Assembly: GCA_030704615.1 (NCBI GenBank)
Contig: CM060733.1
Coordinates: forward strand, 11,718,001-11,782,000
Source: Takakia lepidozioides
Lineage: Eukaryota > Plantae > Bryophyta
Direction: 5' to 3'
DNA length: 64,000 nucleotides
Below the pieces are notes generated by a model. It saw only the letters and a list, made by a program, of their open reading frames with translations, ran no database searches and had not been told where the DNA came from. Shown here piece after piece: positions 4,775 through 34,319 of the stretch (positions are counted from its first letter, which is position 1; each line of letters starts with the position of its first letter). Position numbers and translations under genes: made by a program.

Positions 4775-4882
4775 TTAGTCGAAAAGACTGAAACCCATGT
4801 CATCATTAGACTCCTCCTTCGCTTCCTCCTTTTCTCCGGCAGGTGCAGCAGCAGCACCTCCACCAGAGGAAGCCACCACAAC
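4775..4882 (-). pseudogene. Captured fragment of a 60S acidic ribosomal P-stalk protein (P1/P2-type C-terminus)
   Basis: Manual translation of a frame not in the ORF track: VVVASSGGGAAAAPAGEKEEAKEESNDDMGFSLFD*, matching the conserved EESDDDMGFSLFD tail. Confidence 0.9.
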
Positions 4883-9164: not shown

Positions 9165-9509
9165 TGTCGTGCGCATACATATCGCTACACAACTACATCG
9201 CTGTCCAAACCACACCACACATATATGCACAATAAAGTAGTCTACCCCAATCGCCCCCCTAGCTGGTGGATAGGTCCCTCTACCTCCAGATAGCTACAAG
9301 ATGTAATAGCCACAGCCGTACTAAGTCCTCTATCACTGTCCCTATTGTACTCAAACTCTATAGACCAAGAGGCCGGGTACAAGAGTAGCCCCATCGTTAG
9401 TCGCCATCTTGCAATCTGTGAACTTGAGCCAGGACCTCGTGTGTTCAAGGTCTCCTAGTAGCTGGGCCTTGCGTTTCTTGTTAGCCTTCCATGGTTGTAT
9501 CCACTCCCA

Positions 9510-12479
9510 CTATCCAATGCAATGTGGACATAACCAATCCCCATCCGGAACCATCTCAAGAGGTGGAGTCAAGCACCCCATATGCCAACCTCTAGAGCAT
9601 CGATCACACACCAGCATGGTGGCTGCCCCTTTAGCAGACCCACACAACATGCACCTCAAACCTGCAGATACCACTGCCAGGTTTGGGTCAATCCTGCCAT
9701 CGACATTCGGAAGGTGACATGGCGCACAATTACGCACATGGTCCTTCCAAGCTATGCCATCCCGACCCTCCAAGACCAAGACGCCTGAGGGCAAGACCTC
9801 TCGAACCCTCAAAATAACACGTCCTGCAGTCACATCCAGGGTCGTAGGAGCAGTCTGCTGCAGATAGACATAGTCACCAGGGTTGAATCTCCGAACCCCA
9901 GGATGATAGCCCCCACCACGTATGGTAGCATACCTCAACGTATCACGGTGTTGTGCAATGGCAAGGTTCTCGAAAGCCATGGGCATGACTCTCTTGAACA
10001 ACTCTGCACGCTGCTCACATGCACGTGCCCACACATCCGGATCGTCAAGGTTAAGAACGGTAGCAGCTTCTCTGCGAATGGATGTAGGCAAATCCGGCTC
10101 TCGGCCAAAGAGAAGAAAGTATGGTGAGAAGGAGGCAAGTGATGCTTGCTTGCTGAACCTGTAGCCCATGGCTAACCAGGGTAACTGAAGGTCCCAATCT
10201 CCTAGGTGTCCCTTCTGCAAGCCATACTTGCGCAAACCCCTCTTTACTGTCTGAACAACTCTCTCTGCCAAGCCATCGGCCTCAGGATGATCCCGAGAAG
10301 TGGTGCGGTGGTCTATCAAGGCCTTGTCACACAAAGCCTGAAACTCCCCCAAGAACTCTCTCCCTTGGTCCGTGAGTACCTCAGCTGGAGCACCGAATCG
10401 GCTAAGCACACAATCCAAGAATGCATACGCAGCTCCCTCACTAGCCTTATCAGGCAATGGAACCAATTCAATCCACTTGGAGAAGTGCTCCACCATCACC
10501 AACACGTACTTGTTGTGGCGCATGGTCAGTGGCAACGGCCCTGCGAAGTCAAGACTCCACCTGTAGCCCAATCCCATGATCGGAAGAGGGTGCAATTGTG
10601 GAGTAGGGGCGTTGAATGAAGCACGCACCCTGTCACACACCATGCACCTAGCCACAAATTGTTGCACCTCTGTGTGCATACCACGCCACCAATACTGCCC
10701 CTGCAGTAGACTATGAGTGCGTCGCACCCCAAAATGCCCCAACTCCTCATGGGCATGCCGCACTAACCGTGCCCGCTGTGTTGGGTGAGGCACAATCCTC
10801 ACTCGACCATCCTCCCACACTCGGAGCAGGTGTGTCCCCTCCCACCTGAACCTCTTGGCTCGTTGTAGGATCCGATCCCTCTCCTTGGCAGTCATAGTGG
10901 CTGCCGTGTCTCCACTGCGGAGGTCCAACACAACTGTCCTCATGTATACTTTGCCACTCCTCTCTTGCTCATTGGCCTCAGGGTCCTCAGACACTTGATC
11001 TACAGTCATCCCTGTTGTAGGTCCAACCTGGCCTTCCGCTGCCAAGATACACAGAAATGCAGATGCATGCCATCCGGGCACCATCTCCTCGTCCGTCTCA
11101 CCATGCCACCGAGCTCCAGTGTCATCCTGCTGGCTCGTGCATGGATTGCGACTCAACCCATCTGCATTTCGATTGACCAAACCCGGTCGATGCACCACCT
11201 GAAAGTCATACTCTTGAAGGATGAGTGCCCACCGTGCAAGCTTCCCCGTAAGCTTGTCTGACTCCATCAACCACTTGAGTGGTTGGTGATCCGTGACAAG
11301 GGTGAAGAGATTGCCGTATAGATAGCACCTGAAGTGTGCCACGGCCCACACTGCAGCTAAGCATTCTCCCTCATATGAGCTATACTTAGACTCTGCAGCA
11401 TTGTTCGAGCGGCTAGCATAAGCCACTACGAACTCTCTTCCCTCATCATCCACCTGTGTGAGCACCGCTCCAAGCCCCAGCATGCTCCAATCTGTATGCA
11501 GCTGAAAAGGACGCCCCCTGATAGGTCGTCTCAAGATGGGCGCCGAGGTCAACCTCGCCTTGAGCTCTTGAAAAGCTTGTTCTTGCTCATCTTCCCACTG
11601 CCACTCCTGGTCCACCTTGGTCAGCTTGGTTAGAGCCTTTGCAATGGCACTAAATCCCTTAACAAACCGTCTGTAATAGTTTGCTAACCCCATGAAAGCT
11701 CGAACTCGGCTCACATCCGTGGGGCGTGGAACCTGTGCAATGGACTCTACCTTAGTCTGCTGTACCCCCAATCCTCCAGGATATATCATGTGACCCAGAT
11801 ACTCAATCTGGTTGTGGAAAAACTTGCACTTGCCCGGATGTAACTTCAATCCGTGCGTCCTCAAGCGCTCAAATACCCCCTGAAGGTGTCTCTCATGCTC
11901 CTCCACCGTAGCACTAAAGATGATGATGTCATCTATGTAGCACCGAGCAAACTCCACCCCTGCTAGAATCCTGTCCATGACTCTTTGAAACTCAGCGGGA
12001 GCGTTTTTAAGCCCAAATGGTAAGAACCGCCACTGGTATAGGCAATCCTTCCCGTGCTCATTGATCCCCCAGAATGCCGTCTTTTGCTTATCCGCCTCCT
12101 TGATCGGCAACTGGTGATATCCGGATCGTAAATCCAACGTGCTAAAGACCTTGGAATGCCCAATGGCATCAAAGATCTCCTCTGGTGTTGGCATGGCATA
12201 CCTATCGGACTTGGTCTGACGATTTACAGGCCGGTAATCACCGCACATACGTCTCTCCGTCCAATTGCCATAGACATCCTTCTTAGCTGGCATCACTGTG
12301 GCTGAAGCATACTCTCCACCAGAGAGCTCCACCAAACCTGCCTCCCAGAGATCTTGAGTCCTCATCTGAATCAAAGACCTCTCCATGTCACTGTATCTAT
12401 AGGGTCTCCGAAAGATTGGCGTGTCAGTGGCCAACTCAATACGGATCTCTTGACCCTTCAGTGCTCCCAAGTCCTTCAA
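9510..12479 (-). CDS. pol: pol C-terminal part: reverse transcriptase, RNase H, integrase, PHD finger
   Basis: [32 protein letters not shown]; RNase H TDWS/YEGECLA/TDH/NADGLSR; integrase H-H-C-C and D(SLDF)-D(TDQG)-E(GLAER). RT-RH-IN order indicates Ty3/Gypsy. C4HC3 PHD at 9519-9653. Confidence 0.95.
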   Translation of the reverse strand: MKDLGALKGQEIRIELATDTPIFRRPYRYSDMERSLIQMRTQDLWEAGLVELSGGEYASATVMPAKKDVYGNWTERRMCGDYRPVNRQTKSDRYAMPTPEEIFDAIGHSKVFSTLDLRSGYHQLPIKEADKQKTAFWGINEHGKDCLYQWRFLPFGLKNAPAEFQRVMDRILAGVEFARCYIDDIIIFSATVEEHERHLQGVFERLRTHGLKLHPGKCKFFHNQIEYLGHMIYPGGLGVQQTKVESIAQVPRPTDVSRVRAFMGLANYYRRFVKGFSAIAKALTKLTKVDQEWQWEDEQEQAFQELKARLTSAPILRRPIRGRPFQLHTDWSMLGLGAVLTQVDDEGREFVVAYASRSNNAAESKYSSYEGECLAAVWAVAHFRCYLYGNLFTLVTDHQPLKWLMESDKLTGKLARWALILQEYDFQVVHRPGLVNRNADGLSRNPCTSQQDDTGARWHGETDEEMVPGWHASAFLCILAAEGQVGPTTGMTVDQVSEDPEANEQERSGKVYMRTVVLDLRSGDTAATMTAKERDRILQRAKRFRWEGTHLLRVWEDGRVRIVPHPTQRARLVRHAHEELGHFGVRRTHSLLQGQYWWRGMHTEVQQFVARCMVCDRVRASFNAPTPQLHPLPIMGLGYRWSLDFAGPLPLTMRHNKYVLVMVEHFSKWIELVPLPDKASEGAAYAFLDCVLSRFGAPAEVLTDQGREFLGEFQALCDKALIDHRTTSRDHPEADGLAERVVQTVKRGLRKYGLQKGHLGDWDLQLPWLAMGYRFSKQASLASFSPYFLLFGREPDLPTSIRREAATVLNLDDPDVWARACEQRAELFKRVMPMAFENLAIAQHRDTLRYATIRGGGYHPGVRRFNPGDYVYLQQTAPTTLDVTAGRVILRVREVLPSGVLVLEGRDGIAWKDHVRNCAPCHLPNVDGRIDPNLAVVSAGLRCMLCGSAKGAATMLVCDRCSRGWHMGCLTPPLEMVPDGDWLCPHCIG

Positions 12480-12939
12480 ACTGAAGGCAAAGCAATTCCT
12501 GTAAGCCCTCAGGAACCGCCGTATACGTCGTCTCTCTCCTCCGGTGACAATGGGTCCAATGTCAGGCTCCCAATTGTCCTCCGTAACTGCAACCTGAAGT
12601 CCAGTGGGCTTAGAGGTAGAGGACGCGTCCCGTGGTTGCTATGCTGCAACCTCTTGAGCAGTACCCCCTTCCTGCTCAGTCAATGACAAGGCCTCATCCT
12701 GCCCCATCATCTCATCATTGAGAACCTCCTCATCCCGAGAAGAATCCCCAACCTCATCCATCACAGCTGCCTTCGCTGCCAACTCCCTCTGAACCTCGAG
12801 CACCTCCCACGTGTGCCATGGATGTCTACACCTCGTGGTCCTCACCGGCTCGCCCCCACTCGCTGCCTGTACCGTCTCGGTAGGCAGAGAGACCGTCAAG
12901 GGAAGTGCACTCCGCACTCTACGTTGCTCAGCCATAGCC

Positions 12940-13885
12940 AAGCTGACAATCCAGGTCAAGCAATTGAGATCCATTGCTTGCCCCAGCACCTGACGACGTG
13001 ATGCCTCAGAAAGAGAAGGCACCGCCGTGGTCCCAGTGGAAAACCCCATAGCCCGCTCTCGCTCGTCGGCATTAGGCTCCACTAACTGCTGCAACTGAGC
13101 ATCCCACAAGAGGCCAGGTCCACCATCCCGAAAAGCATGGGATCCTGGGAAGCTGAGCAGTGTAGGTAATGCTGCTCGTGGTTGACCCACCCTGTTGACC
13201 ACTGCCAAAGGCGAACGGTCATCGTGTCTCACACGTTGAGACTGCCTTCCTGTGTCCAAAATGCCATCCACGGTGAGGTGTGCTGGCGCTGCACCCCATC
13301 AAATGCACGCTTGAGCAGTGCGGGTGGCATCAAGTTAGTCCACCATAGTCGTGGACGATGAGCCCGTGACCCCACTGCAGCTGCATCCAGCAACACTGCT
13401 GACCCAAGCCACGACCGGACTTGATGCACACTGGCCATCACCCTGGCCCGAGAATCACCCATCAGTGGTACATTCTCCAAGATGTATGCTGGAGATACAG
13501 GTTGATGAAGCTGCAAGCAGCGCAAAATCCGCATCATCTCCCAAAACAGACCCATCCTCGAGTCTCGCAATCCATTGCCATGCCTGGCTGATGAATGCCC
13601 TTGGCAGGGCCAACCTGCCACTACCAGATCAATGGAGCCAACCCGCTCCAAATCCTGCGCCCCCAGCAACGCAATGTTGCTGGCAAGGCCTGCTGATATC
13701 CACGAACTGCAGACACCGGCAACAACTCAGGGTACTGCTGCACCATCTGAGCAACATGGCGCAGTGAGACGCGTCGTTCAGTCTCATCCCTCTCCACATA
13801 CAGGTAACGTCGAACTCGTACACCTGCCTGCAGCACTGCAGCCAATCCAGTGCTGATCCCGCCAAATAAGTCCAGAAGGCATATG
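12940..13885 (-). pseudogene. DNMT3-like C5 DNA cytosine methyltransferase domain within pol (two frameshifts)
   Basis: Motif I LLDLFGGISTG; motif II YVERD; motif IV IDLVVAGWPCQG (Cys at 13604-13606); motif VI YILENV; motif VIII AHRPRLWWTN; motif IX ERERAMGF; motif X RRQVLGQAM. Spread over ORFs 13621-14241, 13229-13669 and 12639-13271. Confidence 0.92.
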
Positions 13886-14173
13886 CCTTCATCCGGCCGC
13901 TGCCACACAAGAGGTGTGGTGTCCAATGGCGACAACTGAGGTGGCCCTCGTACAATTACCGCACTCTCCTCCTCTCCTGACGGTACAAAAGCTTCTACCC
14001 AAGCTTGTTGCACCCGTCCATCAGCAGCGTGCTGCAAATCCTTGCTCGTACCCCACAATGGAGTGTGAGCAACCATGACAGGCAACTCCGCCGTACCATG
14101 CATATCATCCTGCTCTGCTGGAGGTGGCACATCCTCTGCATGGGCATTGCCTTCCAGCAACTCTCCAGGCCAG

Positions 14174-15205
14174 CTAACTGCAGCTGTGAAGGCGGCTAGT
14201 GTTGGCATTTGCCCGCTGCTGAGCAGCTGCAATACCCCCAATGAATGTCACAGGGAGCTGTGCACGGCGACCATCCCCTGACTGCCATCCAGGCCTGTAG
14301 GATGCTGACTCCTCCCAGAAATCCAGGGTGAAGCCCATGGGGTATAACACTGCCCCACCAACGAGGACATCGTAAGAGACCGCGTCTGTCACAATGGCCT
14401 TGGCTCGCATTACTGAGCCATTTACAGGATGATCCGGTTGCACTCTAATAGCCAACTGATGCCGTGTCATGCCGCGAGCCTGCTCTGATCCTCCCAGAGA
14501 TGTCTGTATCTGGAAAGGACAAGACTCCATATCCGCCTCCATGAGGCCCAAACCTGCAATAGCAGCTCTGCCCAACCGGTACTCTTGACCCCTGTACTTC
14601 TTGCCTGCCGGTCCACTCAAAGTGAAAATGCCTCCCTGGTTATCTAACAAGACAACTCCAGGTGTCACCATGGCACACTCAATGGCTGGCCTAGCTGGCA
14701 GCTCCGTCAATCTGGCAGCTGCAGCTTGCCAGGGCGCTGCCGTGGCAGTCTTGACCCTCAAATCCGAGGATCCCTCTGCCACTACACCTTCCAGTAACTC
14801 CGCAGAAGATGAAGTGACCTCTCCACTCTTGCAGAGTGTTGCTGCTAGTCTGAACACTGCAGCTGGTCTCACTCCCGGCGTCGCAATCATGGTCGCCGAG
14901 AACAGTGGGGCTTGACACACAGAGGTGGCTGCTCCCAATAACACACCGGCTGCACTAGCCTTGGTAGCAGGTGTCAGTGCTGCACGTGTAGGTCTCCCCA
15001 ATGGCATAGTAACCTCCGCCTCGGTAACAGTCGGGCGAGAACTAGGTGCCATGGATGGCGTTGACACTGTCTCCGCCAATGTGAATGACTGGGGAAGCCT
15101 CGCCTGACGGCTTGCCTCCCCACGCTGTGGATCCAATTCCACCTCTGCACCTCGTGGCTCAGGAACTCGTGCTGCTCCTCGAGTCACGGCTGCAGCAGAC
15201 TCCAC
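14174..15205 (-). CDS. pol N-terminal linker plus retropepsin-like protease region (catalytic D-S/T-G not found)
   Basis: In frame with gag after one TAG. Flap-like QIQTSLGG and YDVLVG motifs present; position between gag and RT. Confidence 0.6.
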   Translation of the reverse strand: MESAAAVTRGAARVPEPRGAEVELDPQRGEASRQARLPQSFTLAETVSTPSMAPSSRPTVTEAEVTMPLGRPTRAALTPATKASAAGVLLGAATSVCQAPLFSATMIATPGVRPAAVFRLAATLCKSGEVTSSSAELLEGVVAEGSSDLRVKTATAAPWQAAAARLTELPARPAIECAMVTPGVVLLDNQGGIFTLSGPAGKKYRGQEYRLGRAAIAGLGLMEADMESCPFQIQTSLGGSEQARGMTRHQLAIRVQPDHPVNGSVMRAKAIVTDAVSYDVLVGGAVLYPMGFTLDFWEESASYRPGWQSGDGRRAQLPVTFIGGIAAAQQRANANTSRLHSCS

Positions 15206-16813
15206 CTACTCTAGTGGTAGTGCTGCTCCGCACATAAATCCCATGCCTCCCATATCTCCTCCCTCAGGAGTAGGAGGTGGACCATCCCGCCTGGGAGCCG
15301 GTACCGCCTGAGCTATAGCCATGGCAGCGAGCCTCTGCTCTAGCTGCTGAAGCCGGTTGGCCATGCCTTGATCAACGCCCTGACCTCCGCGTCCTTGGCC
15401 ATGTTGAGCTTGCCCTTGGCCTGCACCTCGTGCCCGACCACCTCGTCCTCTCTGGGCTGGTCCACCTCGCCCCCGGCCACCATTGTTCCCTTGGAACTGG
15501 CCTGGGTGCAACTTAGGATGCAAGTCATAACACTGGGCATCTACATGCCCATTTTTGCCACAATGCCCACACTGCAACTGTGCAGGCTGTGCTTGTGCCG
15601 GCCTTCTGCCATTCTCTGGGCAATCTCTTTTGACATGGGGTCCTCCACATGTCCAACATATCACCCCTGGTTGCTGTTGGCCTGCAAAAGATGCCACGGG
15701 CCTCTGCACCTGAGGTCCCCTGTAAGCTCCATGGAACTTGGGCTGGGCAACCTTGCCCCCCTGACCACGCTGTTGGGCAGTCCCTTGTGCTTGTGGGCTG
15801 ACAGCTGTGCCCCGTACATGCATGTCCTTACCAAATCCAATTGTAACAACTCGCTCCTCCACCATGTTGAGCTCAATCCGCTCAGCCAGCAGAAACACAT
15901 CTGCTAATGTGGGTTGGGCTGCTTGTAACAGGGTTGCATCTCGCACCCTTCTCTTGAGTTCCTTGTCCAGAATTGCATACCAAAACTGGATTGCCTGAGC
16001 TTCAGTAACCCCTTGGGTCACACTTATCAAGCGCCTCATACGAGTGTACGCCTCTCGCAGGCTCTCATTGGGTTTGCGTTGGAAGTCTTGCAAACTTCGC
16101 AGCTTCTCTGTCCGTACACCTTGGTAGTTCCTCCGCAACTCCTGGAAGAACTCCACCACCGGGTTGAATCTAGGCACATGTGTTGTAGTCGTGGCAGGAG
16201 AAGTAGTAGCACATTTTGAACTGGTACCACCTATAGAAGTACCAGCACTACTTGCTCCACTACTAGTGCTGGTAGCGGGAGCTATTGGTACTGATGCAGC
16301 TACTGGTCGCGTCGTGCCTCGAGTAATGGAGACGTAGTCAGGTGACCAATACATCCTCCACTCCTCAATCTCTGCTTCATGTCCTCGCCTGAACTCGTGG
16401 TAATCGTCCATAGGCGGGCCTTCCAAATGCTGGAACAGTCCCTTCCACGCCATGAATGGGGTGAATAGCTGTGGATTGCGCATCTGCTGCAAATCACACC
16501 AGCTGTCGAACTCCTGGATAAAGTCATCCAACTCGATTGTGCCCACAGCTCCAGAGTACCTACGAGGCCCCTTGGTAGCTCCATACATCTCCTCCATGTC
16601 GTCCCACAACAATGGCGAATGAAAGTGCACACCTGTTGATGAAGCCTCCGAGTCTGTGTCTGACGCTACAGTAGTTGAGGGTGGCGGTGAAGGTGGTCTG
16701 AACCGAATACCTCGTCTTGTGAACCCACTCTCACTGTCACTGCTTGTAGCCGTACTCCCCTCAAAACCCTTGGGTAACTCCGTAATGACACTCACAATGT
16801 GCACCTCCTCCAC
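15206..16813 (-). CDS. gag: gag with capsid-like region and two zinc knuckles
   Basis: FQRKPNESLREAYTR major-homology-like motif; CWTCGGPHVKRDC and CGHCGKNGHVDAQC; RGG-rich tail. ORF is called from GTG; first ATG at 16597. Confidence 0.85.
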   Translation of the reverse strand: MEEVHIVSVITELPKGFEGSTATSSDSESGFTRRGIRFRPPSPPPSTTVASDTDSEASSTGVHFHSPLLWDDMEEMYGATKGPRRYSGAVGTIELDDFIQEFDSWCDLQQMRNPQLFTPFMAWKGLFQHLEGPPMDDYHEFRRGHEAEIEEWRMYWSPDYVSITRGTTRPVAASVPIAPATSTSSGASSAGTSIGGTSSKCATTSPATTTTHVPRFNPVVEFFQELRRNYQGVRTEKLRSLQDFQRKPNESLREAYTRMRRLISVTQGVTEAQAIQFWYAILDKELKRRVRDATLLQAAQPTLADVFLLAERIELNMVEERVVTIGFGKDMHVRGTAVSPQAQGTAQQRGQGGKVAQPKFHGAYRGPQVQRPVASFAGQQQPGVICWTCGGPHVKRDCPENGRRPAQAQPAQLQCGHCGKNGHVDAQCYDLHPKLHPGQFQGNNGGRGRGGPAQRGRGGRARGAGQGQAQHGQGRGGQGVDQGMANRLQQLEQRLAAMAIAQAVPAPRRDGPPPTPEGGDMGGMGFMCGAALPLE

Positions 16814-17333
16814 GTGACACTATAAGGCTCTAGTACTAATCTAATAGTGACACGGGTGGGCACCTGTTGCAGTCTAAGGGTCATATCCCAATGGCTCAGG
16901 GCACCTGCACCTGCATCCACCGCAAAAACTCCTATGGTTGGCTGGTCATCAACCCAGCCTCACCATAGAAGAAACACTGGTGGTCTTGCTGGTCATCACT
17001 CCAGCCTCACCACCGACAGCATACTCTAGGATTGACCGGTGATCAAATCCGGCCTAATCCCTATGAAAGCAAGCGCCCACACAAAACCAACATGGCGCAC
17101 AGTCAAGCATGCAGGTGTTGGGGGGGATCCAAACACAAGAAATCAAAACATCAACACCCCCACACCAAAATCCAGCAGCCACGCTGATCCTGCAGAATAT
17201 CCCAGCCCAAAAACCCCGGACTGACTGGCCTCCACCAAGAGAGGCTTTGGCAACTACAAGTATAAGGTAATGAAAATAGTACAAAGATGGAGGGGAAGAA
17301 TAGAAGCCCGCCCAAGCAAGATCTAACCCTGAT

Positions 17334-18083
17334 CTATGCTATCAACTTCCAGACTTCTCTCAAAGTACCTCGCTCTGCTTGATGGTAAGGTGTAGGAGGT
17401 ATATCTATGTCCAGAAACCTGCCACTAACCTTGTCCCAAGCTACAGTAGCTCGCTCTAACCAACCCTCCTCCTCTTTCTGCCAGGTAGAGACAAAGCAAC
17501 ACTCTGCTATCTCCCGCTCACTGAACACTAAAGAAAACAAAGGTAGGGTCTGATAGTCTCTCAACTCGAAAGCTTTGAGACGGTTGCGGGTGTCTTCATT
17601 GCGAATGACTGCATCGCCTTCAAACAGAACAAACTTGTCCTCGCTAATGAACCCCCGCTCGTGGTTGCCTTGTGCAGAGCGTGTCTGTCTGCAACACTGT
17701 CTAATTGCACAAACTTGTGCAGCTCCTGCTCCTCTGCTCCAGTACACCACGGCCTTGTGGCTGAACACCTTGGTCCCTGGAGCTGTCTTTGGCTGTGTTC
17801 CAAGCCTAGCTTTCACCCACTTTGGTATTTCACCTACAGCTGCAGAACTGCTGGCTCCAACAGAGTTCTGACTGTCCAAGGCGATATTGAGGCCCTCAAT
17901 GCCAACTACAGCAGTCTGTTGTCTACTGCTAATGCCTGACTCCCAGTATGCAATCAACTCGTCCAACTGTTCTCCACTCAAATCAGTCTGAGTTCCTTGG
18001 GAAACATAGATCCTGTCCCCTTGTGTGCACAGGCTAAGAGAAGAGACCTGCCCTTCAATTACGTCCTCATTTCCCCCAGCCAT
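17334..18083 (-). CDS. Accessory ORF of unknown function upstream of gag (249 aa)
   Basis: ATG-initiated, same strand as gag-pol, C-terminal 160 aa and stop position shared with copy A. Confidence 0.65.
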   Translation of the reverse strand: MAGGNEDVIEGQVSSLSLCTQGDRIYVSQGTQTDLSGEQLDELIAYWESGISSRQQTAVVGIEGLNIALDSQNSVGASSSAAVGEIPKWVKARLGTQPKTAPGTKVFSHKAVVYWSRGAGAAQVCAIRQCCRQTRSAQGNHERGFISEDKFVLFEGDAVIRNEDTRNRLKAFELRDYQTLPLFSLVFSEREIAECCFVSTWQKEEEGWLERATVAWDKVSGRFLDIDIPPTPYHQAERGTLREVWKLIA

Positions 18084-20699
18084 ACAGGGAGTACATCCAC
18101 AGGTTTGTCTCTCATATAGGCCAGCACAGGTTCTAGAAACAGGATTGTGGATATTTTATGGCACACTCACACTCTAAAAATTCCATAGATTTTTAGCAGA
18201 GTCCCAAAAACAGAAACCAGGTCTAGGTAGGTAGATTTCCCCTTTCTGCAGCTATCCCCCCAAAAACTGAGTCAAACAGAGTCCATTTGACAAAGATATG
18301 ACCAATTTGGCTTTAAATCATTTAAATTAGATCAAAAGGGCCCTTTTTTTTTTTTTTTTTTTTTTAAAGGGTTTTCAAATTTAAAAATTTAAAGTTACAC
18401 CCAAAACATTTGGTAACTGGTTCCCGGTTCCCTAAGTTCTATATGGTTTCCTAGGTTCCCTAGCCACGTGCCCTATAATTTATAGGATTTAGTTGTGTTT
18501 ACAAATGCACCCCCCACAGCTCTTGGTTACCAGTGACCTGCTCTCCTCCAGTCGAGATCCGTAGCTATGCCGAGCCTTAATCCTTTGCACCAATATTCCC
18601 AACAAAAGCAAGAGCACTTACAATGCAACCCCGAAAAGCACCAGAGCTAACTAGCTTGATCAAGAACGCTTACAGCCCTTCATGCGTGCTGATTTTTCAA
18701 GGTGACAACAACAGATCTGCTATCACTGATTGTGAAAGCCTTTCCATGGAGTTGGCACAGGCTGCCCTCAAGTTCTGGATTGTTCACATAGACCGAGCAT
18801 GTCATGTAGTGAGCTGGGCCCCTTCTGTCTTCAAGGGACCGGCAGTTTCAGATGACACCACATTAATGCCTAAATTGTCATCCTTCCCTGCTCCTTTTTA
18901 TCTGATTCCTCCACGGTCAGATTCTTCAAGCCGCATCAGATTCCAGCTTACAAGCCTTTCAATTGACGCTCAAAGTGCCACATCCACACTTGCTTGGTTA
19001 TTGGGCAGAACTGACGTCGATCAGGCAAGAAGAGAAATTTCTGGATCAGACCAGTGCATTGATCATTTCCCAAGACCACGTATGCTGCTTCTTTCGGCGC
19101 TTCTCCAGAAGCCAGAGTCATTAAGTTATGGCGCTCCCCTCAGCAAACCATCCGCCAGCGAGCCTATTCACAGTTCTGCTCTGTCCATCTTTCGCAACAG
19201 CAGTTTTGCTCTCTTGCAAACCCTAGCTTCTAGTCAGCGCAAGTCATCCCTTCAATTCTTGATGGCCTTGCTCCCTCCTCTGGCAGGTGCATAAGTTACA
19301 AGGCTGCTTCACATGTTTGCTCATCCTCCAGCATTCAATGAATGGACGAATGGCTGCACTGCAGGACACCACCAGGCAGTAGAATACGCCAAGTTCCTTG
19401 GTATTCCTATCTCTTGCTCATTCCACAGCCCCTCAACATTACCAATCATATTCGAAGCTCTTGGAGTTCCTGCTCCTGGTCCGATTCAATTGCAGCAAAA
19501 GCCAGACATGCTAGAAAAACTGCCAGACTCTGATCAGGCTAAGAAAGAAGATACAGCCACTGTGACAGCTGCCAATGTGCCCACATGCGTCAAGAAAAGC
19601 TACAGCCCAACTTCAGTGGAAAGATGTGCTTTGCCTGCAGAGGAGCCTGATACAGACAGTATGTTCAGTTTGCCACTTGCAGGACCAGGCTCTCTAATTG
19701 AGGAGCCAGAATGTGGAAATGATGAAAATGGAGAGAGTGAGGTGTGCTCTACTGCAAAGGATGTTGGAGTGGGCATCTTTCAAATTGCTACCCCAGGTAC
19801 AGAGGAAGCGAAGAGAAGTTCGGAGGAAGGAAACATGCGGGTTGCCAGTGATGGTATTGCTATTGACCAGGATGCTACCTCAGAAAATCAATTAGATTCT
19901 GCTCTTCCGCTGCCTTTCCTGACCGCACAATACGTCACTCTTTCCCATTTCTTCCTTAACGGCTGCTGCGCCTCACTGAGGCTCGAAGAACTGCTACGAT
20001 CACATGTTCGATCTCCAAGTCTTTACGTCCGCTTCCACCTCATTTCTTCCCTGCGTTTGTGTGGGTGTGACGAGCAGCAAGGTAAGAGGCACTTGCAGTT
20101 ACCCTGCACACGACCTCACTGACCGCTTCTGGTCGGTGCACATCGAACTAAGGCGAGCAGCCCATACTCTACCTCCTGACTGCCCCACCTCGCCCTCTCT
20201 GCACGCCGTTCCATTCTCCCTCATCTCCATCTCCAGGCACGGAAGTTCTACTCATCTGCTCGATTACAGGTACCCCTTTAAGTCTCGCACTTGGTCAGTT
20301 TCCGAACGGCCAATCGCTGCTACACCATGATATCTCCTCACCGACCAAAACGAAGGCTGCTTCCCCGCAGTATAGCTCCGTCCTGGCCCGGCGGCCTCAT
20401 GCCAGAACCAACGCTATCCTCAACCAGTAGAACAAGACCAGTTCTTTGCCCCTGCTTGCCATGCAGCCTGCCTCCATGGACCATCTATATACCCAGAAAC
20501 CAACGATGATCGAAACCAGCATGTTTTTTTTTTTTAAAGCTTCTCAAACTAAGCATTACTTACACACATGTAATCATACAAGTGCTAACCCTCAACTCCT
20601 ACCTTGCACTCACAGGTAAGAGGTGATCTTTCTCGAGTGATAAGAAGCATAGAAACACTGTTGACACAAAACATGTGAAATCCATCTCTATCACTCGTT

Positions 20700-20987
20700 A
20701 TAATAGAAGTCGAGCCAGGGGCACCCCAAGCTATGGGGACTCCACCCCACAACAACCTACACTCCCATCATGAGTACACTCAGATCTAAACGCATGCAAG
20801 AGCTCGGTCGCGCAGGCTCAACTCGAGAAAGATGAGCTACGCGACTGCCGCTCTCGTGAAGATAAGACGGACCAGGTGTCAAACTAAACTTGACACCTGA
20901 TTTAACACTTGACCTAAATCCAAGTGTTAAATACAAATAGCTAGTTTTATGCTAGCTGTTTTCACACTGTGCTTATTTAACTTGACA
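20700..20987 (-). other. Hairpin-rich 5' terminal region of the DNMT element (copy A equivalent 5280-5567)
   Basis: Stems at 20724-20738, 20807-20845, 20873-20899 (perfect 10 bp), 20900-20932 (perfect 12 bp) and ~20935-20960. Confidence 0.8.
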
Positions 20988-21480
20988 ATATCAATCATTG
21001 CACTCCACAACACCACCTCTCGTTCAGCCATACTGTTGAACACTTCCTTGGCATCCTTAATGCACCCACATTTGACATACATGTCCACCAGGGCAGTGTT
21101 CAGCATGACACCGGGTACAATTCCAGATTTGACGATGCAACCATGGACCTCTTTGCACTTTTCCAGGCTGCCAGGTTTGCACACGCATTGCAAACACACA
21201 CAAACATGATGTGGTCGAGCTTCACCCCTTCCCCCATCATTTGCTGATAGGTCTCCAAAGCCTCATCCCGCGCCCCTGCTGTACACACCCTGCAAGCATC
21301 GCGTTCCACGACACCACATCTCGTTCAGCCATAGGTTGAACACTCCCTTGGCATCCTCAATGCTCCCACATTTGGCATACATATCCACCAGAGTAGTATT
21401 CAGGATGACATCTGGTACAATTGATGATGTCACCATGGATCTCTTTGCCAGGGCTGCCAGACGCACTGCAAACATACACA
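20988..21480 (-). pseudogene. PLS-PPR pseudogene, 5' part (same gene as 7248-9164)
   Basis: Frameshifted PLS repeats ending at the insertion junction in VVLWSAMI. Confidence 0.85.
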
Positions 21481-22250: not shown

Positions 22251-23960
22251 TACACGGGGAACAATTATCATTGACAAGGAATGACTGTGTGGGAACAACA
22301 TCTGCAGAGGGAACATGTTACTTCAGGGGTGACGGTTAGTTAGTTAGGTGGTTAGAACAGCTTGCGGGTAGATTAGGCACGGCGGCAACAGGAAGAGGAT
22401 CACTTCTTGAGGAGGGCGACTTGTTTAGGAGAGGAGGAGACGTAACGGAGAGCGGAAACAGTGAAGGGGAGATGATGACTTGATTGAGGCTTAATTCATG
22501 CAAGCTGTAAAATTATACAGTAGGGTAGATTAGGGACACCATGGCATAGGCATGATACATGATTAATCTTAATCCGATACTGAATCGATACAAACATACT
22601 GTGTAGAGAGACATGAGAGAAGCTGTGGAATGAATGCATGATTAATTGGAACTTAGTAGATACTGAAGCAATCTGATGCTTCAGTATACACGGTAAAAAA
22701 AATTGATAACATGAAGGCAAGAAGGAATACAAATAGGAATCACAACCATGATTCACTAGCTGTAGGTCATGACTGATTGTTCTGAGCGGGCTGAGTGCTT
22801 AGAGATATCCAACTCTTCTATCTTGGAGTTTCCACCTCAGATAGCAAAGGGATGGGTGAGTAAAAGCCGCTCGACAGACCCGTCCGTCATTTCATGGCAA
22901 ATGTTGTGCTGTTCGTGTCGACACCAACCAGAGATGCAATGAGATGATTCGGAGGAGCCTGCAGGGCGGTGTGCCTACCCCTTGCTTCACAGGGAGATTT
23001 GTGTGCGCAAAGTTTGTGGAGACCACACTGAAGGAGTTATGGTTCTGCAGGCACGACATCATGTCGTGTGTGTTTGGCAAGCCCAAGTATGGTGTACAAG
23101 GTATGCCTCAACCACTAGCAGTCTGGCATGTGGCAACTGGTACAGATCTTACCCTGGAGGAGGCACACGCTCTAGGATGTGCAGGGTTTCGACTGGTGCA
23201 GAGGACAGACGTTCCACGGAAGTCGTCATCCTCCTCCCACGAGAAACTCTTCACCCCGCATACCAGTGGGTGACCCCGTAGCTTGGCCCACCCATCGGTG
23301 GGGGAAATTGAAAAGACGGTGGCCACCAATAAAGGCGAATGACACCAGGATGGCCAACGCTCTTGCAATGCCCTACATAGTGCAAGGTTGCAGGGATGTT
23401 GAGGGGCTTTTTGTCCTCTCCTCCGAAGGTTGATGCAAGGGTTTGTAGAAACAATTTTCAATAGATGGCCAAGAGGTTGTTTGAATGTGTGCATTTCTCG
23501 CTTGCTATCCCTATCTAGTTTTCTTCTTATCAGCCCTGCTTTTCTTGTTTCTTTCCTCCTCTCATTTTGGTGGCCATTCCTTGGAGGACCCTCAGTATGA
23601 GCACCCAGTTCACATCAGTTGGAAAACTCTGATACCTCTATCTCTACATAAGGTAATTTGTTGGGGTCATGTGATGCTTTCCTGACTGGTTCTTGTTTTA
23701 TTGCCCAGAGGCAGGTTCTGTCCCTTTTGTTTCCGCTCAAACTGAGCGCGGGGTCAATGGCCACAAGGCTACCGCAAACACATCTTATGAGTACAATCTT
23801 TTTAACTTTTTCTGCACCCTCTCTCCCTTGCGGTTTGTTTATTTTTGGGAGCAGCAAAAAAACGAGGGAGATACTTTTTGTCATGTCAAGACAAAGACAG
23901 GACCCCTAGGGTCATTGTCATGATAGAATAATCAGACATATCAGCCACTTAACAGTGGCA

Positions 23961-24464
23961 TCATCCATCAATCATCAAGCTTAGAAAATCCATAATTAGA
24001 TCTATGCACAGTAATGTGTTCATGTTCATATGAGAGTGAGAGTGAGTGTGAGTGTGAGAGTCACCAGGCATGTGGAATTCTTCCAGAGTATCACTGTCGC
24101 AAAACATTTTAAATCTATTGGTGCTCTCACATAGACATGGATGATTGGGTGTCAAATCCTGTGAGAAACTGAAGTTACGGAAGACAGAAGCAGGTTGGTA
24201 GTATTCTAGATTGCACTGCTTGTGATAAGTCCATCCAAACACAACATCATCAAGCAATAGACATAAACCAGGCTGTTCAAAAAATTCCAAAGCTTCTTTG
24301 ATGAGACCTTTGGCACTGACCCATTCCATTCCTCTGTTGGGATAGAGCATATGAACATATCCCAAGGGAGCAGGTTTTTTAGTGTGTGTGAGAAACCGTC
24401 TACCATGTGCATGGTGATCAATTACTCTGGTTTTTTGTTCCTCCATCACAACCAGAATCTGCAT
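23961..24464 (-). mobile_element. Degenerate retroelement ORF remnant, possibly Penelope-like
   Basis: WTYHKQ...VFRNF...PCLCES..RF..FCD...H resembles the CxC...H segment preceding RT in Naiad/Chlamys Penelope-like elements; RT core not seen. Confidence 0.3.
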
Positions 24465-26215: not shown

Positions 26216-28069
26216 CCTGAATTGCAGGGATCGTAGTGGGCAGTGGGTACTGGTATCCCAAATTCTGCATCTCATCAATCCACTCCGAGTTGGTCATGAT
26301 GGACTTCTACAAAAAATGAATGTTAGTGTGTTCTCTTGGATTCAAACCACATTACAGGGTATGCTGGAAGCTCAACATGATAGTCAATGGATAGTGTATA
26401 CAGAAACCACTAAGCATACTGGACAAGGAGAGAGGGAAGATACTTTTTGTCATGTCAAGACAAAGACAGGACCCCTAGGGTCGTTGTCATGAAAGAATAA
26501 TCAGACATATCAGCCACTTAACAGTGGCACCATCCATCAATCATCAAGCTTAGAAAATCCAGAATTACATCCATGCACAGTAATGTGTTCGTGTCTGTAT
26601 TATTCATAACCCAAAGAGTATGCCACTAATGCTGATTGACCACCAGTCATGATCATGATACACATTCAGAGGTCTGGGTGGGATGGCGGGTACTTGGCCA
26701 TATTTTGGCCTTGATGTGGTGCAGGTCAAATGGTCATACAGATTTACTGTCCGCAAGCTATAATCCAAGCACACTTACTCAAACCCCATGGGTGTCATGG
26801 AGGGTTTTTAAAAAAAAACAAAGCAAAAGAACACTTGGATATCACAGATTTAAATACCTTGCCCTACCAGTATTTGTTTAGAGTGGTCTGCGGCACAGCT
26901 TGCCCCCACAGGGGAGGTGGATATGTCTGGTAAGTTTTCCAGAATACCCCTATACATTTATTTCTTGCTACAGCTGAAAATCAAAGTTCATGACACAACA
27001 AGGTAAATATAAATGACTGCATACACATCCTGTGACAGTATATGATACTGTCAATACACCCTATTCACATCATTCCACATTTGACCGTGTCATTACACCA
27101 TGTCCAGGGGGTATTTCCACTTGACTACCCTGGCTGCCTCAAAAACCAGTTACCAGTTATATTGCTGCCATATTTCAGTGTCAACCGAATAGCCACAGGA
27201 ACAAACTTCACCATACCCTGGCCTAAGCATCTAGCTAACAAAGCCATCCGGGTTAGAACATAACAGGGGCATTTTACCAACATGGGTACCCGAGTAGCTG
27301 CAGCAAACAGTTCCTTGCAGCCTCTCAATTTGTTTCCAACTACCATAAGGTAAGCAAAGCAAACAAGGGCCTGGAAAACAGATGTGTGTCTCTCACACAA
27401 GCCATCATAAACCCGGCTGTCACAACAAAGCAGAGGTTTTCCACTGGCTGGGCCGAAATAGCCCATCGTAGAAAGCATTACACTTGTTCTTCATAAATAA
27501 AGGAAGGAAAGAGGTAGGATCAAGAAAAACCATAGAGTAGTTTAGTTTTTCAACATTTCAAGATGAGTCCCTGGCAAATGATTCCTTCCCCTGCTCTGCA
27601 ATCCCATTGGGCATCCAGCAGCACCTAGACATCAGAGTATTAAGTGGAAGCCCTCACCTGTGCCCGTCCCAAAAACAACCACAACGCATTGTGAGTTAGT
27701 GAGGATGCACGAGGTGAGTAGCAGGCTTCCTCACTTGCTATCGAGGTCAAATACACTTCAATCTAAGCGCAGAGAATGCCAAAGAAAGCAGGGAAGCAAG
27801 ACAAACAGAAAAAGAACATATTTTTTTCTGTTTGGTGGAGAGTCGTCATCTCTCCACAAGCCTAACCGTGCAGGGAGGTCTCCGCCAGCACCACAACACT
27901 GCAACCTTAACCAAAGCAGAGTCTTGCCAAACACAAAAAAAAAAAGCTTGGTCTCAAAAGGTAGGGTTTATAAAGGGAGGGAGAGAGAGACTTCCTTGTT
28001 CTACCAAGACGCCGCCATTCATCAAAGATCCAGAGGAGGGCTCCTAGGAAACTTCATAAGCAGGCAGTT

Positions 28070-28795
28070 TGTCGCGCACCTCACTCCGGTAAGCTCCCCT
28101 TCAAGTCATAGTTACTCGCTTTGATGCGCGCGCCTGACTCCCAACCTGGCCGCCCGGGCCAACTTGGAGCTTCGGCTGCTCACCGGGACATAACGGTCCC
28201 CCCTTCGCTTCCCTCTAAACCCTCCACCTCTTTGGGACTAGGAGAATTCCCTTTGGTAGATGGCAGTCCGGAACAGCTCCCCACTCTTTGGTCGCTTTCC
28301 GGCTCGCTCGCTTACTCACTAGTTTTTGGTCACCAACGGGCTTGCACCGTTCTCGGGGTTACTACTCCCTATATATACTTCTGTAGCTGTCCGCGGGGGT
28401 TTCATAACCAGCCATGCCATTTTATGGCGAACCACCACGAAAACCCTCGACTCCCGGTGGTGAGTCGCGGTGAGTCTTGGCCCACTCACCGCGGCCCCAA
28501 TGGACCGTGATGAGTCCCAAGACTCCCCACGACTCCCACCTCGAGGTCTCCACCCCATGGTGAGTCCTATGCCACCCCCACTAAGTCCCACTAAGCTACC
28601 ACCACCCCTTGTGGAGCCACCTCCACCGCAACCCGGTGTGCGGGGCTCCACCTAGTGAGCGCCTCCGCCTCCTTGAGTGCCTTGGGCACTCAAGGGTGCT
28701 TCAGCCCCCCATACCTATCGCCGCCGCTGCCCCCACCACAGGGGCAGCCCCTCATGTGTCCCGACCCCCTGCCCTCAAGGCAAAGGGCCGCGACA
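28070..28795 (-). repeat. 3' LTR of chromovirus
   Basis: No differences seen versus 34320-35045. Confidence 0.97.
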
Positions 28796-29701
28796 CACAC
28801 CCCTACCAACAGGGAGTCGATGTCCTCATCGACTTGTCCATTTTGTAGAAACGAACATCCAAGTTGTGGCGTCCCACATCAAGGAGTTTGTTTCCGTACC
28901 ATGGCGTCCCATGGCAAAGAACCAAACCCCACACTTGACTCCACTCTCCACTAGCTAGTTCGGCCGACTTCCTCCAAGTCCCGGCCAAGGGTGGAGCCTC
29001 TCCAGCTCCTCCCAGTGCACTCTTCTTGGCCTACTTCAAGGCCAAGGAACGATCCTTCCCGAGGATCGAATCGCCTTACTGCAACAACATTGCTTGCGAT
29101 CGCTCATGATGCCGCTTTTGGCATCACCTTGAGCAAGGGTTCACCTGGAACCCTCTTTGACTAGGAAGATAACCTTGAACCAACCGTGCGCCCCAATCAC
29201 TACAATTGGGTCCGCCTTGGAATGCTGGCCTGAGGTACGGGAACACGCCGAAGCCGCACTACGACTTCGTCCCGAGGCTACACGATTATAGTACGTGAAC
29301 GGAAGCACGTAGCTTCCGCGTTAGCCCGCACTACAAGGCAACCCCCTCGGTAGCGCAGTTATAGTACGCGCACGCGCCAGGTGCGCACTAGCACTTGAAC
29401 TCCCAAATAAGGCGCAAGTTTCCTTGCCCCTTGGATGGGAGTCACCCGATTTCGGCACTGCGCAAACACACGATTAACCCAATTTACCTCTCCCACTTTT
29501 GTAAGCTAGCATGCATTCTACACACCAGCCAACCACACCATGCATCACCATTCCAAACACAATAGGACGCACAATATTTGGAACCCATTTCCTTTATCAC
29601 AAATTTTTGTACAATACAAGTTTTTGCAATCGGATTCCTGAGCTAGCTAAACCGGGCTAAGCATGCATTTCCTCCCCCACGCTCCAAGGTTGATGTCCCC
29701 A

Positions 29702-32700
29702 TCAACGCTTCTTCCGCTTTTGAGGTCGCCCTTCGAACGCTGCAACTGCCTCGGATGCGTTTCCCATTTCTGAGGCACGCACCCAAGATGCCTCCACAAG
29801 ATGATAGCCCTTCCATTTGACGAGATACTCCGTTTCTCGGTTCTTGAACCTCCTCGACTTAAGTATTGCCTCCACCTCGTACTCGGGTTCATTTTCATGA
29901 TCCAACAGCATAGGTGGCGGACGCAACACTTGCTGCCGATTCGGACGTGCTTCATCTTTGAAGTAAGGCTTCAAAAGGGAGACATGGAATACTGGGTGCA
30001 CCTTGCTGTTTGCTGGCAGCTCCAATTCATACACATCCTCATTCATAACCCTCCGAATGCGAAAGGGACCCGCATACGGAGGTACGAACTTCGGACTCAT
30101 TTCCGGAGGTAGTCGAAAATTCTTGATGTTCAACCAGACCTCTGTGCCTGCCTCAAACTTCACTTCCCTCCGCTTCCGATTCGCCTGCCTTTCATACCGT
30201 TTCCTAGCTTTGGCAATGTTGTACTTTGCGAGCTTCAACAAACGCTCGCGTTCTTCCAGTACCGCCGCTACTGCCGGTTCCTCAACGTCCTGGGCGGCCC
30301 AACTTGTCGGCACCAGAGGTGCTTTTCCATAGACCAACACAAAAGGGGAAACTCCCGTCGCGGAGTGTTCTGTGTTATTATAACAGAACTCTGCCGCGTC
30401 TAAGTGTTCCATCCAGTCTGATTGGTCTGCCGACACGTAATTCCGCAAGAATTGCTTCACTACGGAATTCACTCTTTCCGTTTGGCCGTCCGTCGTAGGT
30501 CGGAAAGCGGTGCTCATCTTCAGCCTCGTCCCCATCTTCTTCCAAAGTGCTCTCCAGAATTTACTCGTAAACTTTGGGTCGCGGTCCGAGACAATATCCT
30601 TCGGGACTCCATGATGCTTTAAGACGTGGGCGAAGTAAAGTCGCCCTGTCTCCTGCGCAGTAGCCGTCTCCTTGGTGGGGATGAAATGGGCCATTTTACT
30701 GAACCTATCTACCACCACCATGATTGCATCGAATCCTTTTGACAGCGGCATAGCAGTCATGAAATCCATCGAGACGCTTTCCCAAGTCCCCTCTGGAATC
30801 GGCAAGGGTTGTAACAGCCCCGCTTGCTTTTTATACTCGCTCCGGTTTTGTTGGCATGTGGTGCATGTCTTTACATACTCCTCTGCCTCCTCCCTCAGTT
30901 TGGGCCAGAAATACTCTTTCTTCAAGAGTGCCGCAGTGCGCTTGGCTCCACCGTGGCCCGCAAGCGGGCTATCATGGCATTCTCTCAAGAGACTATCCCT
31001 GATCCCTCCCTTTGGCACATAGAGACGTTTTTGCTTATACCGGAGCAGTCCGTTTTGCAAGTGGAACTGCGATTTAACCCCCATTCTCAAGTTCTGCATC
31101 ACGCACTTTGCCAGCTCATCCTTCCGGCAAGCCTTCCGGATCTTCCTTTGGAGCGCCGTCTCGCCCTTGTACACCAACAAGAGCTGCTGCTTTCTACTTA
31201 AAGCATCGGCCACCACATTGTCCCGTCCCGGTTTGTACTGGATATCCACGTCGAACACTGCCAAAGTATCTTGCCACCTAAGTTGTTTTGGGGACAACTT
31301 GGGCTGCGTGGCAAAATACTTCACCGTGACATTGTCCGTGAACACCTTCACTGGGTTGGAACCAACATAGTGGCGCCAGAGTTCAAGGCAATGTACCACC
31401 GCCTTCATCTCTTTTTCGTGCGTCGGCCACCGTCGCTCCACTTCATTCAGTTTCTTACTTTCGTAAGCCACTGGACGTCCATCTTGCATAAGTACACCCC
31501 CAATTGCGAAGTCCGATGCATCTGTATGAATCTCAAACGGACGATCGAACTCCGGGATTTTTAAGACTGGAGCTTCCGTCATCCGCTGCTTCAATTCAGC
31601 AAAAGCTTGGCCACAAAATGTGTTCCATACCCAGACTTTGGATTTACACAGAAGGTCCGACAGCGGCCCCGCGATCTTGGCGAAATTTCTCACATACTTC
31701 CGGTAATAGGAGGCGAGTCCTAGGAAGGATCGCACTCCCGGGACCGAAGTCGGAGGCTCCCAGTCCAAGATCGCCCTCACCTTTCTGTCATCCATTTTGA
31801 TCCCATCCTGTGTAATCACGTGCCCCAAGAACTCCACTTTTGTGACCCCGAATTCGCACTTTGAAGCTTTGGCATACAGCTTCCCTTCTCGCAATTTTTG
31901 GAACACCCTTTTGAGGTGCTCCAGGTGCTCCTCCTTTGTTTTCGAGTACACCAAGATGTCGTCGATGTACACGATCACAAAGTCATCCAACCACTCCTGG
32001 AAAAGGCTGTTCATCAGCGTGCTAAATGTCGCTGGTGCATTGGTGAGCCCAAAAGGCATCACCAAGAACTCATATGAACCATACCTTGTCCTGCACGCGG
32101 TCTTCTCCTCATCTCCTTCCGCCACCCGAATTTGGTGATAGCCGGAGCGCAAGTCGATCCGGCTGAAATACTTCGCTCCTGCCAACCGATCGAAGAGGTC
32201 GTCGATCCTTGGCAAAGGGTACCGGTTTTTGATAGTCACCTTATTCAGAGCCCTGTAATCGACACACATCCGCAGCGTCCCATCCTTCTTGTCTGCAAAT
32301 AGCACCGGGGCTCCGTAAGGTGACTTACTCGGCCGGATGTACCCCTTTGACATTAGATCTTTGAGCTGAGTCTTCAGCTCGACCAACTCTTTGTGGCTCA
32401 ACCGGTAGGGCGCCTTGGCAGGCGGTTCCGATCCCGGTATCACCTCAATTTTGTGGTCAACTCCTCTTCGCGGTGGCAAGCCGCTTGGTAAATCCTCTGG
32501 CATCACATCCTGGTATTTCTCCAAAATCCCCTTGATCCAATCTGGGCTCGGCTCCCCATCGCCTTCTCCTTTCACTTCTCTAATGTAAAGCAAAAACTGG
32601 GACTCGTGTGTCTCCTCCACGGCCCACTCCTTTGCTGATAGAAGGTTTATTCGCCCTCCCACGGATTTGGGCGTTTCCGACACTCGTAAAACCTCGCCAC

Positions 32701-34264: not shown

Positions 34265-34305
34265 GATGAGGCCAATCCCAAGGACGATCGCGTACTGAAC
34301 TCTAA

Positions 34306-34317
34306 GCTCTGATACCA
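34306..34317 (-). promoter_or_regulatory. Primer-binding site, tRNA-iMet
   Basis: TGGTATCAGAGC two nt inside the 5' LTR. Confidence 0.95.
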
Positions 34318-34319
34318 AG

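Follow-up and report, generated by a model that had tools for sequence, protein, structure and literature searches.

What takes the place of a long terminal repeat (LTR) and of a primer-binding site in a retrotransposon whose left end is a run of hairpins? The question is raised by a stretch of 64,000 nucleotides from the bryophyte Takakia lepidozioides (assembly GCA_030704615.1, contig CM060733.1, positions 11,718,001 to 11,782,000), hereafter the window, in which positions 20700 to 20987 lie at the 5' terminus of a Ty3/gypsy element, element B, and a second copy of that terminus belongs to a related element, copy A. The initial annotation had read the hairpins as a functional RNA or single-stranded DNA structure, for self-priming, packaging or end definition, that could substitute for the LTR and primer site. 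Our own answer, which we hold to be reasonably probable, is that the terminus is the left split repeat (A) of a Ty3/gypsy element bearing a DNMT3-like methyltransferase and a PHD domain, and that this element is likely self-primed and likely opened by its integrase at a palindrome of the LTR rather than at the DNA ends. The parts that matter for the argument are, in window coordinates:

9165 to 20987, minus strand: element B, a Ty3/gypsy retrotransposon of the short form A-cargo-coding-PPT-B (PPT, polypurine tract), with ends TGTCA...CGACA; its 3' end aligns with the ends of relatives
20639 to 20987, minus strand: the left of the split repeats, A, of 349 bp, interpreted as U3b-R-U5; its inner end is placed from the primer site and the relatives
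9165 to 9251, minus strand: the right of the split repeats, B, of 87 bp, interpreted as U3a and ending CACGACA
9252 to 9264, minus strand: PPT, conserved in relatives
20979 to 20987, minus strand: motif TGTCAAGTT, the integrase site at the terminus, which forms the right half of the B/A palindrome and has a second copy at 20887-20895
5212 to 5567, minus strand: A repeat of copy A, an element that extends past the window start

Element B is 11.8 kb long and encodes, on the minus strand, gag, protease, a DNMT3-like methyltransferase, reverse transcriptase (RT), RNase H, a DDE integrase and a PHD domain, in that order. The succession of gag, protease, RT, RNase H and integrase is that of Ty3/gypsy, as are the DDE integrase, the TG...CA ends, the short target duplication and the PPT. 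What does not conform is the identical LTR pair expected at the ends of an integrated copy, in place of which the repeats are split and permuted; within the 64-kb window, the 3' end of element B holds no repeat of the 5' end.

The layout can be followed in 80 metagenome loci with a related pol, 59-86% identical in the best segment. In these relatives, the PPT is followed by a B repeat ending CACGACA and then either by host DNA or by two bases and a further copy each of A and B. Distinct insertion sites of the main family comprise 12 with a long form, A-coding-B-GC-A-B, and 23 with a short form, A-coding-B. This count covers 46 of the 80 loci, as those without the 3' motifs of the family (missing, interrupted or of another family) were excluded; among the uncounted are L027, where the contig ends, L052 and L053, which are interrupted, L077/L079, which have an inverted end, and L029, a long form of another family. 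Element B is a short form. Both forms carry target duplications: at the 11 loci with both ends, 4/4 bases are duplicated in seven, 3/4 in two, and a duplication is absent in two.

Contigs that leave the 3' end of the element at 9165 continue, in two of four runs, into GC and the 5' terminus (the A end, ...TAACTTGACAGC). This B/A continuation is seen in 3 contigs of run X5 with an agreement of 0.98 and in 67 contigs of run X1 with an agreement of 0.43, and the terminus variant in the contigs that continue past 9165 differs from the window terminus; here and below, contig depths are not taken as copy numbers and enter no count. The B/A joint is a palindrome, CGACA-GC-TGTCA, found at 24 loci of four families and at one unassigned site, with a spacer (n=25) that reads GC in 11, AC in 9, GT in 3 and AT in 2. 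The CHG deamination rule is well established, and the variants AC, GT and AT would fit methylation decay of an original GC under it. At the joint between A2 and B2, the last base before the primer site is joined to the first base after the PPT, and two distinct sites carry scars there, one PPT base in L015 and an insert copied from A plus two PPT bases in L005/L006; these scars are of the repair type. The split repeats are best read as an ordinary LTR, B-GC-A, whose integrase sites have moved inside. A further CA-GT-TG joint, of a different family, is present in L080 at 15448, 2 kb past the end of the element.

Priming points to a long-range duplex that the initial annotation had not named, half of which lies outside positions 20700 to 20987:

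20821 to 20833, minus strand: predicted self-primer, 13 nt, with its 3' end at 20821
20626 to 20638, minus strand: predicted primer-binding site, directly behind A, the complement of 20821-20833
5401 to 5417, minus strand: predicted self-primer of copy A, 17 nt
5195 to 5211, minus strand: predicted primer-binding site of copy A, complementary at 17/17 positions

Neither the 13-bp nor the 17-bp length was reached by any of 1000 shuffles. Where the relevant passages of PMC6317226 take at least 10 bp behind the 5' LTR, complementary to the LTR, as the mark of a self-primer, the window has 13 and 17 bp and relatives have 16-17. Primer and binding site pair at 17/17 positions in copy A and L019, at 16/17 in L067 and L032, and over 13 contiguous positions in copy B; of 14 loci of the main metagenome family, 12 have 9-12 of the first 12 primer bases paired and 2 have lost the primer. 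The duplex of copy A also has a compensatory change of its own (5409/5203 versus 20829/20630). The A repeats of the compared families have no alignable sequence in common, and the primer bases that differ are still Watson-Crick paired in 11 of 11 cases between copy A and L019, 7 of 8 between copy A and L032, and 11 of 12 between L019 and L032. Among the ten pairs nearest the primer end in the main family, 94% are paired, versus 32-49% when the whole helix is slid by 1-3 columns. A TATA stands 26 nt ahead of the duplex in L019 and L032. There are no tRNA genes in the window, and the bases behind A do not start with TGG, in contrast to those of the ordinary chromovirus in the same window. In L077/L079, a single insertion (L077 3698-3878, L079 1749-1929), A2 is followed by an inverted copy of A positions 1-180, which begins exactly at the primer 3' end and ends at the terminal CA, as expected if an unremoved, 5'-extended primer had been copied.

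These features can be joined into one replication cycle. Transcription would start near 20833-20837, and the RNA 5' end would pair with 20626-20638 and be cut by RNase H after 20821 to yield the primer, as in Tf1. Terminal redundancy is confined to the long form, where R is present in both A1 and A2; reverse transcription of this RNA would thus yield a linear cDNA of the ordinary kind, each end being a B-GC-A LTR. The ends of this cDNA (A end and B start) would then be joined, or both LTRs would recombine to one, and the integrase would cut CA^GC^TG, so that a two-LTR molecule would become the long form and a one-LTR molecule the short form, which would be a dead end. The broader claim has about an even chance of being right: that this is a green-plant LTR lineage with both integrase sites in a fixed LTR palindrome and an obligatory internal cut of circular or end-joined cDNA, that its tRNA-free self-priming was gained apart from Tf1, that two thirds of its insertions are one-LTR dead ends, and that L077 is the fossil of an unremoved self-primer.

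A number of observations weigh against this account. The start site, the primer cleavage and the strong-stop DNA are predictions from the sequence, as is the use of the RNA 5' end as primer, and the window family has only TTATC at the position of the TATA. The one RNA run considered has scarcely any depth on the terminus and speaks neither for nor against the account. Covariation of the duplex within the main family is modest, its pair measures being equalled by 8-16 of 500 shuffles and its percentage paired by 46 of 500, and kinship of the sequences alone can give such covariation without structure. Moreover, the four families are related, which leaves few independent events. The copy-A base at 20829 makes up 80% of the depth and that at its partner 20630 only 12%, in unphased data in which depth at 20630 is eight times lower. 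L077/L079 represent one event, which could also be a template switch via a 17-bp match or an assembly artefact. The A2/B2 joint is known from relatives only, and the inner end of A in the window is placed by analogy with them. A two-LTR circle would be symmetrical, so the mirror form A-B-A-coding-B is expected too; it occurs at none of 14 distinct 5' ends, with 4-5 long forms among these. In L032 (8662-9317), the sequence after B-GT-A is primer site and leader instead of B, which could reflect a tandem copy, a circle with one LTR or collapse of the assembly. Finally, the target duplication of element B is not clean, since paralogous pentatricopeptide repeat (PPR) units hold four bases at the target site that the window lacks (9145-9164 / 20988-21020).

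What, then, of the hairpins that raised the question? Those of the terminus are:

20873 to 20899: perfect 10-bp hairpin that contains the terminal 9-mer once more, upstream of the predicted start
20900 to 20932: perfect 12-bp hairpin, upstream of the predicted start
20939 to 20957: hairpin AGCTAG/CTAGCT, which in copy A reads AACTAG/CTAGTT; also upstream of the predicted start
20807 to 20845, minus strand: stem-loop enclosing the predicted primer; its inner GCTCA/TGAGC stem is present also in the L019 and L029 families
20730 to 20753, minus strand: 9-bp hairpin with sense-strand G-U pairs, in the predicted R/U5

As described in the initial annotation, the stems lie at or beside the places given for them, and the two abutting perfect stems are identical in both copies, with arms CAGGTGTCAA at 20873 and TTGACACCTG at 20890 (5453 and 5470 in copy A) and ATTTAACACTTG at 20900 and CAAGTGTTAAAT at 20921 (5480 and 5501 in copy A). 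The terminal 9-mer AACTTGACA at 20979 is indeed repeated inside the first of them, at 20887 (5559 and 5467 in copy A), and the GTCGCGCAG stem has, on the element-sense (minus) strand, C-G in copy A and U-G in copy B. The terminus folds more strongly than all 200 shuffles, with z of -4.89 as sense RNA, -9.03 as antisense RNA and -7.56 as DNA. Perfect hairpins with arms of at least 10 number 15 in the 64 kb, of which 4 are in the terminus, and for this reason the two abutting ones are not attributable to chance.

The double compensatory change is real and of small weight: pair 5520-5536 is A-T in copy A and pair 20940-20956 is G-C in copy B. Given 18 differences over 290 aligned bases, 6.6% of 200,000 random placements produce at least one compensated pair among the 37 stem pairs, and differences within stems (3 observed versus 4.6 expected, P 0.28) are not significantly depleted. 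Position 20940 is A in 99.97-100% of the depth of three DNA runs, with G at most 0.03%, which implies that the G-C form is private to copy B and reflects one event; the 40 of 78 variant positions considered do not include its partner, 20956. Apart from 20940, all the variants listed within 20860-20960 fall in loops or flanks. RNAalifold on 14 copies of the family detects little covariation, with two-sided change in 10 of 112 pairs, and does not predict the primer duplex, and we do not count it as support for U3 structure; in Rfam no family matches the terminus, one match elsewhere being due to chance. The three U3b hairpins have no sequence counterpart in three other families. A hairpin-rich U3 is found also in L032 (z -3.5, sense) and L036 (z -3.8, sense), where its sequence is unrelated, and U3 folds weakly in five copies of the main metagenome family (z +0.9 to -1.9) and in L029 (z -1.9).

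We read the three perfect hairpins as inverted duplications specific to the family, which play an accessory part in U3 and do not act as the primer. On the proposed cycle, they would be missing from the RNA 5' end and found only in DNA and in the 3' copy of the long-form RNA, where a packaging or 3'-end role is conceivable. The stem enclosing the primer is another matter. Three families retain its GCTCA/TGAGC core, and the variants at 20839 and 20838 preserve G-U pairing on the sense strand alone, so that this stem may act in RNA; one might speculate that it hides the primer sequence in the 3' copy. The proposal of a structure replacing LTR and primer site thus stands in part. There is neither an ordinary LTR pair nor a tRNA primer site, and self-priming is likely. 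The predicted carrier is the duplex 20821-20833/20626-20638 and not the named hairpins; these lie upstream of the predicted start, lack a counterpart in three families and show one private compensatory change. Nor does the terminus substitute for an LTR: it and 9165-9251 are the two halves of one that is split.

It is improbable, for the same reasons, that the local hairpin run itself primes, packages or defines the end as a functional RNA or single-stranded DNA. The strong folding, the hairpin-rich U3 of L032 and L036 and the tendency of the listed variants to avoid stems would suit such a role, and with transcription from the first base of the element the RNA would be capped by these hairpins, the 180-nt inverted copy of L077 showing that longer RNAs can exist. 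The main metagenome family, however, folds weakly and no sequence counterpart links the families; the stems are strand-symmetric, with the stronger z on the antisense strand, and the end is better defined by the CA-GC-TG palindrome and the priming by the long-range duplex. Far less credible still is a separate miniature inverted-repeat transposable element (MITE) or DNA-transposon end fused onto a truncated gypsy element. The TG...CA ends, the subterminal inverted copies of the end motif and the 2.3-2.4 kb of unrelated cargo ahead of gag could be so explained, but both terminus copies in the window (2/2) stand upstream of the same gag and none is free-standing. In other copies the terminus is linked by GC to the gypsy B end, the relatives share both layout and target duplications, and the primer duplex spans the inner end of the terminus.

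Two further alternatives concern how the forms arise. In one, self-priming holds and linear cDNA is used with no circle: the integrase would assemble on a single LTR, at its internal palindrome, and insert both cut ends, after which the gap from A end to B start would be closed by host repair, end-joining giving the long form and repeat annealing the short form. This predicts the same products and scars, and could explain the absent A-B-A-coding-B form if the A match of about 340 bp anneals more readily than the 87-140 bp of B. It would require a chromosome break at each insertion, and no precedent for it was found among the literature matches listed; we regard it as unlikely, albeit the strongest of the rivals. 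Slightly less plausible again is that short forms are secondary, by recombination between B1 and B2 after insertion. Recombination of the solo-LTR type is an established process for LTR elements and would retain the target duplication, as observed; against it, B measures just 87-140 bp and yet short sites exceed long ones, 23 versus 12. The search for relatives was anchored on pol and is blind to the A1-A2 product, a solo A-B. Integrase opening of joined or recombined LTRs at the palindrome remains our preferred account.

The remaining features of element B and of its insertion site are:

9510 to 12638, minus strand: RT - RNase H - DDE integrase - PHD, an open frame with YIDD and D,D35E
12639 to 15205, minus strand: protease-like region and C5 DNA methyltransferase (PF00145, E 1.8e-11), broken over several frames
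15206 to 16819, minus strand: gag open reading frame (ORF), PF03732 below cut-off
17334 to 18155, minus strand: additional ORF of 273 aa, upstream of gag, of which copy A has lost a part
18345 to 20570, minus strand: copy-specific cargo, unrelated to the cargo of copy A, with a poly(A) run at 18345-18366
9161 to 9164, plus strand: ATAT, left copy of the probable 4-bp target duplication, inside a PPR-DYW pseudogene
20988 to 20991, plus strand: ATAT, right copy of the probable target duplication

Copy A and element B have 369 bp of the left end in common, followed by 2.4 kb of differing cargo, after which shared sequence resumes; copy A is missing 17870-18172 of element B. The 273-aa ORF is without a Pfam match and has no counterpart in the 80 related loci. 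The cargo of element B holds two antisense ORFs, neither with a Pfam match, and has a depth, in contigs and not to be read as copy number, far below that of the rest of the element. The cargo of copy A (2793-5194) holds, at 4778-4960 on the minus strand, a C-terminal portion of a 60S acidic ribosomal P protein (PF00428, E 7e-9). The two cargoes are mutually unrelated and both end A-rich on the sense strand, which suggests that host transcripts were captured behind the primer site.

In L032, which has an intact counterpart of the methyltransferase, the enzyme is DNMT3-like, its best matches among solved structures being DNMT3A/B/C, and the gag-protease-DNMT and pol frames are intact with one stop codon between them. 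The methyltransferase has its nearest named relatives in Marchantia, Calypogeia and Sphagnum. A midpoint-rooted tree of 35 hand-picked RT sequences, with Tf1 and Tcn1 themselves outside it, groups the element with its metagenome relatives (100/99), outside the chromovirus branch, and loosely (80/81) with DNMT-bearing Closterium and unnamed proteins; no Klebsormidium sequence is among the matches listed. RT-integrase polyproteins with PHD and/or DNMT (P0006, P0026, P0051 and P0064) mark relatives in chlorophyte and zygnematophyte algae. The viral contigs contain no relative of the element.

The element interrupts a frameshifted PPR-E-DYW gene (7545-9160 and 20988-21422). A duplication-free insertion, Helitron- or DIRS-like, between two ATAT was considered because both ATAT copies together restore the PPR frame length; it is less likely, as the relatives show 4-bp duplications. 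The ordinary chromovirus at 28070-35047 is a very young insertion, with an open frame of 1542 aa between two identical LTRs of 728 bp; its primer site is of the TGG type, which we take to be initiator-Met. Short dispersed repeats, some inverted, occur at 23864-24025 and 26432-26594 (95% alike) and at 23730-23799, 44981-45052 and 48604-48649 (93-100%), and an intronless F-box / KIB1-4 beta-propeller ORF lies at 60306-61526 on the minus strand.

The hairpins, then, matter less than the initial annotation had supposed. It is a long-standing question for retroviruses whether LTR circles lead to integration or are dead ends, and the structure of the present, natural element seems to demand an internal cut. 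If this is true, it would explain why an element with a DDE integrase looks like DIRS or Ngaro and why programs that look for LTR pairs would miss the lineage; with close methyltransferase relatives in the model liverwort Marchantia, it may be directly testable. The single parts are known, and their combination, together with the evidence for an internal integrase cut, appears undescribed: among the literature matches listed for such elements, from a scope that leaves out most subscription journals and repeat databases and so offers no proof, there is no account of self-priming, an internal palindrome or two forms.

The repeat layout itself is already known from KnitGypsy-Dnmt3 of Klebsormidium nitens (de Mendoza et al. 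2018, PMC5890265), where Dnmt3 occurs in gypsy elements and the legend of Fig. 4c gives DIRS-like repeats A-coding-B-A-B with Gypsy domains; 'streptophyte Gypsy-DNMT3' is the name used in passages of bioRxiv 10.64898/2026.05.21.726589. The likeness extends to a DNMT3-like C5 methyltransferase in the polyprotein (PF00145 in the window, DNMT3A/B/C matches in L032) and to A-coding-B-A-B repeats at the family level, the window copy B being a short form. It is a likeness by description only: the pertinent passages of PMC5890265 give no mechanism, primer, joint sequence, target duplication or short form, and PHD has no occurrence in the main text. A PHD-bearing gypsy element of Chlamydomonas has near-ordinary LTRs, according to passages of PMC9940879.

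In Tf1, the first 11 bases pair with the primer site and are removed by RNase H, as set out in parts of PMC7175516. The present element resembles Tf1/Tf2 of Schizosaccharomyces pombe, Tj1 and the moss and club-moss Tcn1 clade, as portrayed in sections of PMC7175516, PMC4600332 and PMC6317226, in that a primer site behind the 5' repeat complements the predicted RNA 5' end and matches no tRNA. Those elements are described there as chromoviruses with ordinary LTRs and an 11-base primer, whereas this one differs from Tf1/sushi/Tcn1 in having a PHD and no chromodomain, a duplex of 13-17 bp, split repeats and an RT outside the chromovirus branch. Split direct repeats, A1 ... B1-A2-B2, are shared with the tyrosine-recombinase retrotransposons PAT/Ngaro/VIPER, of which SIRE is a solo A-B unit (portions of PMC6681497). 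These integrate via a tyrosine recombinase, in contrast to the DDE integrase, PPT and 4-bp target duplications found here; the element ORFs scanned include rve and no tyrosine recombinase family. The closest parallel to the proposed cut is the 2-LTR circle joint of HIV-1 and foamy virus, to which PMC1180852 also relates, likewise a CA-xx-TG palindrome with two integrase sites head to head and an internal cut. Excerpts of the relevant reports indicate that HIV-1 integrase is able to cut the palindromic LTR-LTR joint (PMC1905944) and that linearisation and integration of 2-LTR circles are possible (PMC4372172). In those viruses, as so described, this is a side route and the joint is formed anew from DNA ends, whereas in the lineage of element B the palindrome is fixed in the LTR and the internal cut would be the sole route.
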